A stretch of DNA of 64,000 nucleotides from Escherichia coli. Lineage in GTDB: Bacteria > Pseudomonadota > Gammaproteobacteria > Enterobacterales > Enterobacteriaceae. The position numbers and the translations under genes were made by a program. The stretch lies in NCBI RefSeq assembly GCF_003018255.1, contig NZ_CP027440.1; one strand, 5' to 3'. Positions 16,639 through 24,464 of the stretch are shown here, in pieces; position 1 is the stretch's first letter; each line of letters starts with the position of its first letter. The notes under the pieces are model-generated. The model was not told the DNA's origin, did not search any database, and was given only the letters and a program-made list of their open reading frames with translations.

Positions 16639-20703
<4,065 letters not shown>

Positions 20704-20717
20704 AACTCCCATCTGAT

Positions 20718-20749
20718 GCCCGGTAAGCATGTTGTTACCGGGCATTTTT
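20718..20749 (+). terminator. rho-independent terminator of glpACB
   Basis: GC-rich hairpin GCCCGGTAAGCATGTTGTTACCGGGC followed by ATTTTT. Confidence 0.6.
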
Positions 20750-20896
20750 GCGTCCACGATTCCGCGCTCAATGTATACGTTGCAACGCAGTGAAAATTCC
20801 TCTGAAAACGTCTCGCAAAGGCTGAAACTGGCAGATGTCAAAGGCCTGGGATAACCGTAATGTCGCGTTATCATAAATATCAGGTGACGGACAACC

Positions 20897-21856
20897 ATGA
20901 CCGAATCAACAACCTCCTCCCCGCATGATGCGGTATTTAAAACCTTTATGTTCTCGCCCGATACGGCGCGAGATTTTCTCGAAATACATCTGCCAGAGCC
21001 GCTGCGCAAGCTTTGCAACCTGCAAACCTTACGCCTGGAACCCACCAGCTTTATTGAAAAAAGTTTACGCGCTTACTACTAGGATGTTTTGTGGTCGGTG
21101 GAAACCAGCGACGGTGACGGCTATATCTACTGCGTGATTGAACATCAAAGTTCTGCAGAAAAGAATATGGCTTTTCGACTAATGCGCTATGCCACTGCCG
21201 CCATGCAACGTCACCTGGATAAAGGCTATGACAGAGTTCCGCTGGTGGTGCCATTGCTGTTTTATCATGGCGAAACCTCGCCCTACCCGTACTCACTCAA
21301 CTGGCTGGATGAGTTTGACGATCCGCAACTTGCCCGGCAGTTGTACACCGAAGCTTTTCCGTTGGTGGATATCACCATCGTACCTGACGATGAGATCATG
21401 CAACATCGGCGTATAGCTCTGCTGGAACTGATTCAAAAGCATATTCGCGACCGCGATTTAATCGGTATGGTCGACAGGATCACCACGCTTTTGGTTAGAG
21501 GCTTCACTAATGACAGCCAGCTACAAACGCTGTTTAATTATCTGCTGCAATGCGGCGATACCTCCCGTTTCACCCGCTTTATTCAGGAGATTGCCGAACG
21601 TTCACCACTACAAAAGGAGAGATTAATGACTATTGCTGAACGGCTACGGCAGGAAGGACATCAAATTGGCTGGCAGGAAGGTAAATTAGAAGGCTGGCAG
21701 GAGGGGAAATTGGAGGGTTTGCAGAAAGGCAAAGTAGAAGGTATGCATGAACAAGCCATTAAAATTGCCTTGCGCATGCTGGAACAGGGCTTTGAACGTG
21801 AGATTGTGCTGGCGACAACCCAACTCACTGATGCTGATATTCCGAACGGTCATTAA
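20897..21856 (+). pseudogene. yfaD: Rpn-family (PDDEXK nuclease-like, YhgA-like) protein gene interrupted by an in-frame TAG at 21080-21082
   Basis: Two same-frame ORFs (20897-21082 and 21089-21856) separated only by TAG. Translation across it reads ..[34 protein letters not shown].., a continuous Rpn N-terminal motif as I recall the family. The 255-aa downstream ORF in the track begins at a TTG. Confidence 0.55.
21626..21856 (+). CDS. candidate intragenic C-terminal small protein of the Rpn gene (76 aa, same frame)
   Basis: Internal ATG at 21626 preceded by AAGGAG with 6-nt spacing (..caAAAGGAGagattaATG..); encodes [39 protein letters not shown]...; the same SD+ATG block is duplicated at ypaA. 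Confidence 0.35.
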
Positions 21857-21868
21857 AAGGAGAGATTA

Positions 21869-22042
21869 ATGACTATTGCTGAACGGCTACGGCAGGAAGG
21901 ACATCAAATTGGCTGGCAGGAAGGCATGCATGAACAAGCCATTAAAATTGCTTTGCGCATGCTGGAGCAGGGCATTGATCGTGATCAGGTGCTCGCGGCC
22001 ACTCAGCTAAGCGAAGCCGATCTGGCAGCGAATAACCACTAA
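21869..22042 (+). CDS. ypaA: free-standing Rpn C-terminal-tail small protein (57 aa)
   Basis: ATG at 21869 with AAGGAG at 21857-21862; [57 protein letters not shown]. Its first ~70 nt are identical to 21611-21680 inside yfaD. Below the 60-aa ORF-track cutoff. Confidence 0.6.
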   Translation: MTIAERLRQEGHQIGWQEGMHEQAIKIALRMLEQGIDRDQVLAATQLSEADLAANNH

Positions 22043-22049
22043 TTAACAC

Positions 22050-22079
22050 AGGCCCACAGCCGATCCCCATGGGCCTTTG
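22050..22079. terminator. hairpin between convergent ypaA and rhmA (possible bidirectional terminator)
   Basis: AGGCCCA...TGGGCCT stem followed by TTTGA. Confidence 0.35.
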
Positions 22080-22082
22080 ATA

Positions 22083-22886
22083 TCAATAACTACCTTTTAC
22101 GCGTGGCCCATTTTTGCCTGATTTAAACATCGCCAGTCGTTGATCCAGGGCATCGCTGTAGAGCATCGTGTCAACGCCAACAGCGACAAAGTTCGCTCCC
22201 CACGCCAGGCATTGCTGCGCCATATCAGGAGCCACAGCCAGAAAACCAGCCGCTTTACCCGCAGCACGGATCCGCCGAATGCTGGTTTCAATAATTCGCT
22301 GCACTTCCGGGTGCCCGGCGTTATCCGGGTAGCCCAACGACGCAGAAAGATCCGCAGGTCCAATAAACACGCCATCAATCCCTTCAACATCGAGGATTTC
22401 GTCCAGGTTATCCAGTGCCGTTTTACTTTCCACCTGCACCAACAGACAAAGCGAATCGTTGACTTGCGCCATGTAATTCTCAATGCGTCCCCAGCGCGCA
22501 GCCCGTGCCACACTGGCCCCAACACCACGCTCACCGTAGGGAGGATAGCGCGTGGCAGACACCACCTGACGTGCCTGATCGGCAGTATCGACCATTGGGA
22601 TCAGTAGAGTTTGCGCGCCAATATCCAGGACTTGTTTAATCAGCGGCTTACTGCCTTCCACCGGACGGATCACGGGGTGGCTGGCATAGGGCGCTACCGC
22701 CTGTAGCTGGTGATAAAGATCCTGAATGGTGTTTGGCGCATGCTCCCCGTCAATCAGCAACCAGTCATAACCGGAAGTGGCGGCAATTTCTGCCATATAG
22801 GCAGTCGTTGAGCTTAACCACAGACCAATTTGCACTTCGCCCTTGCGTAAACGTTCTTTAAAGGGATTGGTTAATAATGCGTTCAT
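22083..22886 (-). CDS. rhmA: 2-keto-3-deoxy-L-rhamnonate aldolase (HpcH/HpaI family)
   Basis: 267-aa ORF starting [26 protein letters not shown]; class II aldolase fold motifs. Confidence 0.9.
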
Positions 22887-22902: not shown

Positions 22903-23990
22903 TTAATGATGTGCCACGTCGGTCTGCGCAACAGTGCGATTTACACGCAGAGTGAAAATAATCAGCGAACCGATGACCGCCACCGCTGCCAGCGTCAGTA
23001 ATCCCGCCGCATCGCTGGAAAATAACGTTTCTGCTTTCACGCGCAGGATCGGGGCAATAAACCCGCCCACTGCACCAAACAGGTTTATAAAACCAATCCC
23101 CGCAGCCAGCGCCGTACCGGAAAGAAGCTGTGTCGGCATCGTCCAGAACACTGGCTGTACGGCAATAAACCCGATGGCTGCAACACACAGCGCAACGATC
23201 GCCAGTAATGTCAGCGCCGCGACATTACGCCGCTCGCCGGTTTTATCGGAATAGCGCGGAATAAGCCAGGTCCCAAACAAGGCCGCGACCCACGGAATGG
23301 CGGTGACCACCGACGCCGTAAAGCCCACTTTTGTCCCCAACAATGCAGCAACCTGCGTCGGCAGGAAGAAAATTAATCCGTAAACCGCCACCTGAATGGT
23401 CAGGTAGATAATCGCCAGTTGCCAGACTCGGCCATTACGCAGCGCATCGCTCAATCGAGAAGTCACTTTCTGTTGTTCTTCACTTGCCAGTTGGTTGATA
23501 AGCAACGTTTTTTCTTCTTTACTCAGAAAACGTGCCTGCTCCGGCGTGTCATCAAGCCAAAAGAATGTGAATACCCCAGCGCCGACTGCCAGCAATCCTT
23601 CAATCACAAACATCCAGAACCAGCCGGGATGCCCCATAAATCCATGCATCTCCAGCAGCGCGCCGGAAAGCGGTGATCCCAGTGTTAACGCCAACGGTGC
23701 GCCCATATAGAACAGCCCCATAATGCTGGCGCGATTACGCTGCGGAAACCATTGCGAGGTGAGATAAATCATACCAGGGAAGAACCCGGCCTCCGCAGCA
23801 CCAAGCAGAGTACGAACGATCAGAAATTTCGCTTCAGTATCGGCCCATGCCATGGCTGCCGAAAGAAATCCCCACAGCAGTGTTGTCGTACCAATCCAGG
23901 TTCTTGCCCCCAGTTTGCGCATCAAAAGATTCGCCGGAACACCCAGAAACGCATATACCACAAAGAAAATGCCTGCTCCCAGACCAGCCC
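22903..23990 (-). pseudogene. rhmT: L-rhamnonate transporter (ACS-family MFS), N-terminally truncated
   Basis: ORF 22903-24039; the MFS sequence begins only at ..GLGAGIFFVVYAFLGVPANLLMRKLGAR (the TM2 region). About 50 N-terminal residues including TM1 are missing, and the 5' end of the ORF overlaps rhmR' in another frame. Confidence 0.55.
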
Positions 23991-24464
23991 TTCGATAATA
24001 CTTTGCTGTACAGCTGCAGGTTGCCAGGCAAGCAGGCATTTACCTATTCCGGAGCGATAAAGCGAAAGGCTTTTTCCTTCATGGGAACGCACGCTGATAG
24101 TGGCTGATGACTCCACTTTCAAAATGTAATAAGCGCTGCCGTTATCAATAATCCCCAGGTGACATAACAGCCCAGTGGTATCCATCAGTTGCGTCAAACG
24201 CGGTCGAGCCAGTTCCCGGAGATCCATCTTGCTTAACGCATGACCGGAAAGCTCCACCAGCCTGGTCCACAAACAAAAATTTTCCTGGTGATCAAGGCTA
24301 AGAAAACGCTGACGCCTGAGTTCATTAAGCAGCAAATAGGCCGTGCTTTTAGGGATCCCCAATGTGTCAATGATCGTCGCAGCACTACAGGGGCCAATGC
24401 GGGCAATCAAATTGAGAATATCAATAGCCCGTGTCAGGGCGGGAACTTTGCTTGATTCCAACAT
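23922..24464 (-). pseudogene. rhmR: IclR-family transcriptional regulator, C-terminally truncated (180 aa versus about 260 expected)
   Basis: N-terminal IclR HTH (ALTRAIDILNLIARIGPCSAATIIDTLGIPKSTAYLLLNEL); the effector domain ends prematurely in ..WYMRFWVFRRIF*; overlaps the rhmT' ORF by about 118 nt. Confidence 0.55.

Follow-up and report, generated by a model that had tools for sequence, protein, structure and literature searches.

Organization of the rpnE–ypaA locus

The stretch of Escherichia coli DNA analyzed here (64,000 nucleotides, hereafter the window) carries two genes, rpnE (yfaD) and ypaA, between glpC on the upstream side and rhmA (yfaU), which lies downstream on the opposite strand (Table 1). 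The same arrangement occurs in K-12 MG1655, where both genes are annotated as rpnE (b2244) and ypaA (b4543), and this agreement in gene order identifies the gene of the window as rpnE, formerly yfaD. As the long frame of the window is broken, the intact 319-aa coding sequence of strain 104 (allele L001, 99.9% identical) was used as its proxy in the profile searches. This protein scored 707.6 bits against the NCBIfam RpnE equivalog model NF007418 (cut-off 583), while the RpnA model gave 415.9 bits, under its own cut-off of 583, and a PD-(D/E)XK domain (Pfam PF04754, Transposase_31) was found at residues 8–209 with E = 1e-87. We read the locus as the E. coli rpnE (yfaD)–ypaA member of the ‘gene-within-a-gene’ toxin–antitoxin family Rpn, and give this account as a whole a probability of roughly 85%. 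PADLOC has no model fitting the RpnE or YpaA proteins, its sole and weak match being to a ‘putative invertase’ (E = 1.5e-4).

Table 1. Features of the rpnE–ypaA locus and their positions in the window
Feature	Position	Strand	Description and basis
rpnE (yfaD) full-length frame, RpnE_L	20897..21856	+	319 codons, interrupted here by a stop; ORF list
TAG nonsense codon, Ser62 TCG to TAG	21080..21082	+	changed base 21081, C to A; precedes conserved Asp63
Duplication copy 1	21596..21838	+	243 nt, within rpnE; repeat search and alignment
Shine–Dalgarno AAGGAG, internal start	21614..21619	+	6 nt 5' of the ATG; read from the sequence
rpnE_S, putative intragenic antitoxin	21626..21856	+	in-frame internal ORF of 76 aa; ORF list and translation
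Array of six 12-nt/4-aa units, (xxxG)n glycine repeat	21671..21742	+	Tandem Repeats Finder and reading of the units
Duplication copy 2	21839..22021	+	183 nt: end of rpnE, ypaA Shine–Dalgarno and most of ypaA; repeat search and alignment
Shine–Dalgarno AAGGAG of ypaA	21857..21862	+	directly 3' of the rpnE stop TAA (21854–21856)
ypaA (rpnE_Ss)	21869..22042	+	standalone S-domain copy of 57 aa; ORF list
Single WQEG unit, ypaA array (minimal array)	21914..21925	+	
G+C-rich hairpin, terminator-like	22050..22076	.	between the convergent ypaA and rhmA; terminator-like on the minus strand

As in other Rpn gene-within-a-gene systems, rpnE has an in-frame internal Shine–Dalgarno sequence and ATG near the 3' end of the long gene, the ATG lying at position 21626 and opening the predicted 76-aa frame. 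The initial annotation had noted this Shine–Dalgarno sequence and ATG, but had not recognized them as the start of a gene within a gene. Translation of both small proteins in K-12 is known from the literature: Ribo-RET revealed that each of the five rpn genes has an in-frame internal start, with an internal product of K-12 rpnE 98% identical to YpaA (Meydan et al. 2019, 10.1101/520783), and SPA tagging on the K-12 chromosome detected RpnE_S as well as YpaA, there named RpnE_Ss (Zhong et al. 2023, PNAS, PMC10400941). The latter study also reported that the four-residue repeats are variable in all RpnS and RpnSs proteins, and that ypaA derived from rpnE and can disappear through deletion or fusion. 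Work of 2019 and 2023, on the same locus in K-12, has thus already described the internal start, the ypaA duplicate and the four-residue repeats with their variation. To these, the present analysis adds the exact junction of the duplication with evidence for its single origin, a survey of sampled complete genomes of E. coli that documents variation in both copies, evidence for exchange between the copies and for purifying selection on the long N-terminal domain and on ypaA, the character of the array as a FliH-like (xxxG)n glycine repeat, and a nonsense codon that would abolish this strain's long protein.

Both small proteins can be aligned to the structure of RpnA_S (PDB 7TH0). YpaA, which keeps one of the six four-residue units and is there 20 aa shorter than RpnE_S, matches it over residues 1–55 against 1–47 (phmmer, E = 4e-5), and RpnE_S matches in two pieces, residues 1–13 and 41–72, which places the array at residue 13 of RpnA_S. 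Precomputed matches to the Pfam family PF27070 (HTH_Rpn_C) exist for YpaA and the RpnE C-terminus; a Pfam-A search of YpaA gave no significant match and did not report PF27070. A single-sequence AlphaFold2 model of RpnE_S reached a pLDDT of 56, with broken helices. The top PDB matches, designed helical repeat and PPR proteins, were set aside as compositional matches to the helix-turn-helix part. No internal promoter was detected by a consensus sigma-70 scan of positions 20700–22150; an internal transcription start has been published. The hairpin between ypaA and rhmA, folded as plus-strand RNA, has a predicted energy of −12.1 kcal/mol (z = −2.1) and is followed by a weak T run only.

A tandem duplication of the rpnE 3' end

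A repeat search identified an exact direct repeat of 70 nt (21612–21681 and 21855–21924) carrying the Shine–Dalgarno sequence, the ATG and 18 codons, together with a second pair, 21737–21838 and 21920–22021, of 102 nt with 81% identity. The spacings of the two pairs, 243 and 183 nt, imply an indel of 60 nt, and a pairwise alignment of the copies indeed contained a single gap. The alignment also exposed about 16 nt of similarity on the 5' side of the exact repeat (ATTGCCGAACGTTCA, at 21596, aligning with ATTCCGAACGGTCA, at 21839), so that the duplicated unit extends over the limits given in Table 1. The initial annotation had described an imperfect direct duplication of about 240 bp, with an internal indel, of the Rpn 3' end, including near-identical segments at 21611–21680 and 21853–21922 that share Shine–Dalgarno sequence and ATG. 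That description was borne out, save for coordinates 1–2 nt off, and so was the homology of the copies beyond chance, which the single-gap alignment supports and the length of the exact repeat puts beyond question.

The 32-mer spanning the junction (21816–21847) was identical in 14 of 14 duplicated loci of the first set fetched, K-12 MG1655 included, which suggests that the duplication arose only once. A scan of metagenomes with this 32-mer returned three contigs only, a number insufficient for a census. Mis-assembly typically occurs at tandem repeats and near-identical duplicates, and in one metagenome contig (L018) the join at the conserved head is possibly chimeric, so that the duplication, or the difference in repeat number, could in principle be an artefact of assembly or sequencing. 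We regard this as barely credible, since every duplicated locus examined, K-12 MG1655 among them, has the same junction, the haplotype with six units in rpnE and one in ypaA recurs in independent assemblies, 76 complete genomes are at least 99% identical to the window over the whole locus, and both proteins have been tagged on the K-12 chromosome (PMC10400941).

As to the order of events, we infer that 243 nt comprising the internal start, the array and most of the S domain were duplicated in tandem and in frame; as this length is divisible by three, a double S domain in a single frame would have resulted at first. In the alignment, indels of 1 and 5 nt distinguish the copy-2 linker from its source. 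These indels would have put ATT CCG AAC GGT CAT TAA in frame, providing the stop after which RpnE now ends in IPNGH, and this new stop would have left the second copy as a separate gene, ypaA.

The repeat array and its variation in the population

Tandem Repeats Finder described the array of the window as a repeat of period 24 with 3.1 copies and 76% matches (21668–21741). The array alternates two types of four-residue unit, [W/L]Q[E/K/Q]G and K[L/I/V]EG, and steps of 24 nt are common because of this alternation. A 24-nt unit encoding eight residues, as first proposed for this DNA, is hence the best period at the DNA level, but the unit by which the population varies is of four residues, or 12 nt. 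The array starts at residue 16 of RpnE_S, within the 8–20 residues past the S start that are characteristic of Rpn proteins.

One rare allele (L051/L052) has 24 nt exactly duplicated in tandem between direct repeats of GGCAGGAAGG. This is the signature of slipped-strand mispairing, and it indicates that even a minimal array can seed expansion. It substantiates the earlier suggestion that the repeat is prone to slippage.

The locus was present in 5,420 of 5,426 complete E. coli genomes, and its length across these 5,420 varied in multiples of 12 nt. Among the loci read, the rpnE array contained 1, 2, 3, 4, 6, 7 or 9 units, the ypaA array 1, 2, 3, 5 or 7, and the array of single-copy alleles 1, 2 or 3, the combinations of rpnE and ypaA units amounting to 17 distinct haplotypes. 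The survey of repeat number across strains that the initial annotation had called for therefore found it variable and not invariant. On the other hand, its view that only one of the copies carries the array describes this strain (six units in rpnE against one in ypaA) but not the species, in which both copies vary, K-12 having one unit in rpnE and two in ypaA. An evenly spaced sample of 40 genomes, whose classes were partly inferred from span lengths, comprised about 24 duplicated loci, 15 with a single fused copy bearing a ypaA-type tail, and one with an IS2 insertion; a single fused copy would appear to be present in about 38% of complete genomes. Every main protein variant was found on at least 997 contigs, and the exact YpaA protein of the window was listed in 1,926 collection blocks.

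Sequence variation is also pronounced outside the array. In the N-terminal region of rpnE (20950–21250), 3,854 of the 5,420 genomes are just 90–95% identical to the window, and the mean synonymous divergence among rpnE alleles is 0.078. This divergence seems high for a chromosomal gene of E. coli and suggests either old allelic lineages or frequent import.

Two loci depart from the common structure. The metagenome contig mentioned above (SKEH01015850.1, positions 438–614) has a nine-unit rpnE tail followed by a different RpnS-like ORF of 58 aa (MMTIAERLQEVGRRKGKREGQHAEALRIAQRMLDDGIARETVVKITGLTADEIAALAH) instead of ypaA, with unrelated G+C-rich DNA downstream of that ORF; the contig represents either genuine recombination at the conserved head or a chimera made in assembly. 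In L050 (GCA_031444645.1), the second copy continues after its ypaA head into a third type of tail, and the gene downstream is of the MoCF_biosynth family and not rhmA. The locus thus has further allelic and structural variants.

Divergence between the copies and selective constraint

Synonymous divergence between the two copies increases along their length, from 0.11 in the head to 0.20 over the first 15 codons of the tail and 0.51 over the last 16. Such a mosaic fits gene conversion over the 5' part, and would likewise fit an origin from two diverged alleles. In strain BHUCD02 the tail of copy 1 mixes both types; a mosaic copy-1 tail is given for L053. Judged by their N-terminal sequences, single-copy alleles adjoin duplicated ones, with two differences between L004 and L048 and four between L012 and L009, a pattern that fits recurrent loss of the duplication by fusion.

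Between strains, the 243 N-terminal codons of rpnE had a pN/pS of 0.07 and the ypaA tail one of 0.25, and the head of neither rpnE_S nor ypaA showed a single non-synonymous change at a pS of 0.08–0.09, the figures for the short regions resting on small numbers. To judge from these values, the N-terminal domain of rpnE and ypaA both look constrained by purifying selection, which argues against the RefSeq annotation of rpnE as ‘inactive’ and of ypaA as a pseudogene or ‘incomplete, missing N-terminus’.

These labels nonetheless point to another reading, according to which ypaA is a decaying fragment and the array varies in both copies by neutral, microsatellite-like slippage that has no role in specificity. 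In keeping with it, K-12 RpnE was inactive in assays of recombination, toxicity and SOS induction (Kingston et al. 2017, PMC5350276), the constructs of which also co-expressed RpnE_S; the second copy is absent from about 15 of the 40 systematically sampled genomes; rpnE is broken in some strains, the window among them; and intact frames are weak evidence for selection, since slippage by 12 nt is in frame by itself. However, nearly every duplicated locus read preserves the ORF, Shine–Dalgarno sequence and ATG of ypaA, the exceptions being L049 and L050, whose ypaA copy has an atypical or unclassified C-terminus. Neutral decay also accords poorly with the low pN/pS of the ypaA tail and the unchanged head, with the detection of the YpaA protein in K-12, and with the finding that one added repeat abolishes the function of RpnC_S (PMC10400941). 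We consider this reading improbable.

Relation between the arrays of rpnE and ypaA

Another possibility concerns the role of ypaA, which might represent a second, non-cognate specificity rather than a redundant antitoxin to the resident RpnE_L, either as a spare cassette that could be moved into rpnE by recombination or as immunity to incoming RpnE_L alleles. The two arrays differ in this strain (six against one unit), in K-12 (one against two) and apparently in 24 of 24 duplicated loci of the unbiased sample, their unit numbers having been partly read from the sequence and for the rest inferred from locus length. In addition, the single-copy alleles that adjoin duplicated ones by N-terminal sequence carry the ypaA-type tail along with ypaA-like arrays, and the mosaic tail of L053 points to gene conversion between the copies. 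If the rule established for RpnC holds for RpnE, a YpaA of mismatched repeat number would be unable to pair in register with the resident RpnE_L, and gene conversion or a deletion-fusion could then move the ypaA cassette into rpnE; strains that have lost the long protein would keep two orphan small proteins.

A systematic mismatch of repeat number between the copies was considered and rejected as a rule. All of the first 12 distinct haplotypes had unequal numbers, but when synthetic equal-number queries were searched against the complete genomes, haplotypes with equal numbers came to light, namely 1+1 in BHUCD02 and 3+3 in A30 and GDSC2239PM, while no genome with 2+2 units was found by this search. 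Two of the 17 distinct haplotypes are thus equal, against 1.65 expected if the arrays were independent. These counts give no evidence that equal numbers are avoided, though the unit numbers do differ in most genomes. Moreover, the haplotypes are clonal and hence stand for few independent events, a fusion that loses one copy is irreversible and would make a poor switch, and fusion alleles had already been noted by Zhong et al. (PMC10400941). We therefore hold a dedicated second specificity of ypaA to be unlikely, and retain the interpretation of the locus as an Rpn gene-within-a-gene system with a duplicated small protein.

Proposed function of the array in RpnE pairing

For other members of the family, the toxic effect of the long protein, a DNA endonuclease, and its blockage by the small one are documented: RpnS blocks the toxic RpnL, antitoxin action having been shown for RpnA, RpnB, RpnP2 and RpnC, and the dimer interface of RpnA_S is formed by its long first helix (PMC10400941). 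Likewise, only RpnC_S proteins of equal repeat number block RpnC_L (PMC10400941). Extending these rules for toxin, antitoxin and repeat number to RpnE, we infer the following scheme. RpnE_L would combine an N-terminal domain resembling PD-(D/E)XK nucleases with a small helical C-terminal domain, and the internal Shine–Dalgarno sequence and ATG would yield, in the same frame, the C-terminal domain alone as RpnE_S. As short Rpn proteins bind the long protein through helix 1 and block it, RpnE_S might do so too. Slipped-strand mispairing or unequal exchange would make the array of xxxG units in helix 1 grow and shrink, mostly by 12 or 24 nt at a time, and the number of units could set the length of the pairing helix as well as its register, and thereby which long and short proteins pair. 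Toxin and antitoxin would thus derive from a single frame, in which a slippage-prone 12-nt repeat retunes the fit between partners, probably under phage pressure; anti-phage defense has been shown for the plasmid-borne RpnP2 only (PMC10400941). The initial annotation had suspected a putative interaction tail and a specificity-diversifying region in this segment. The first corresponds to the dimerization helix of RpnS, and the second agrees with the need for equal repeat numbers in blocking, which has been shown for RpnC only (PMC10400941).

Comparison with known systems places the array more precisely. The K-12 locus has the same internal Shine–Dalgarno sequence and ATG, the same junction and the same heads and tails as the window, but differs in having 1 + 2 instead of 6 + 1 units, and in the absence of the nonsense codon at residue 62, which the window shares with no other complete genome. 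RpnA_S (7TH0) and RpnC_S have a homologous C-terminal three-helix domain, and in RpnA_S the array would lie in helix 1, at the insertion point marked by the authors (PMC10400941). The RpnC-type units resemble those of RpnE in having four residues, one hydrophobic and the others charged or Gly; RpnA_S itself, however, lacks an array, and the rule that only equal numbers function was shown outside RpnE.

In RpnE_S, Gly occupies residues 11, 15, 19 and so on up to 39, eight in all, forming seven contiguous GxxxG units with Glu, Gln, Lys and Leu between them. Profile matches of the array were weak and sub-threshold, with E = 0.025 for Yae1_N and E = 2e-7 to 3e-4, far under the cut-offs, for FliH models. 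In FliH, repeats following the pattern AxxxG(xxxG)mxxxA, with m = 0–12, are predicted to be helical (PMC2674601), and the deca-GX3 motifs of Yae1/Lto1 mediate complex formation (PMC4523923). The array shares with FliH/YscL the run of xxxG, similar residues between the Gly positions and a varying repeat number, but FliH varies between species whereas the RpnE array varies within one. The likeness to FliH/YscL and Yae1/Lto1 is one of motif only and not of homology. The main text of Zhong et al. 2023 (PMC10400941) does not draw the link to FliH or Yae1. The (xxxG)n character provides a structural reason why one unit more or less should shift a helix–helix interface. As an analog, Zhong et al. (PMC10400941) cited the TAEL repeats in HsdS of EcoR124I and EcoR124II, where the count of four-residue repeats in a helical spacer also sets specificity; the HsdS repeat, however, determines the spacing of the DNA recognition site, while the RpnE array is proposed to determine protein–protein pairing.

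Disruption of the long frame and other features of this strain

The TAG at codon 62 is the sole difference between the window and strain 104 over 1800 nt. Of the 5,420 complete E. coli genomes, none matches the window exactly over 20950–21250, the best reaching 99.7% with one mismatch. Accordingly, either this strain has lost the long protein, which is truncated at residue 61, or the base is a sequencing error. The codon immediately precedes Asp63, which we take to belong to the conserved nuclease motif. Both small ORFs, rpnE_S and ypaA, remain intact despite the TAG; if real, the nonsense codon would remove RpnE_L here and leave the two small ORFs without a partner.

Other disruptions of the long frame were met in strain UTME-10 (L017), where an IS2 is inserted after codon 211 of rpnE, and in two single-copy loci (L026 and L027), in which the frame is truncated to 217 and 213 aa while the internal small ORF is intact. 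These three disruptions are independent.

The neighboring rhamnonate operon is rearranged as well, at about 23922–24464, with a junction near 23971. Here the ORF of an IclR-type regulator (the N-terminus of rhmR/yfaX, 180 aa) runs straight into a truncated rhmT/yfaV transporter gene, which encodes 378 aa from its first ATG in place of the 429 aa of K-12-like loci, and rhmD/yfaW is absent. The contiguous rhmR–rhmT arrangement was found in 79 of 5,426 complete genomes, a number approximately equal to the 76 that share the rpnE haplotype at 99% identity or more.
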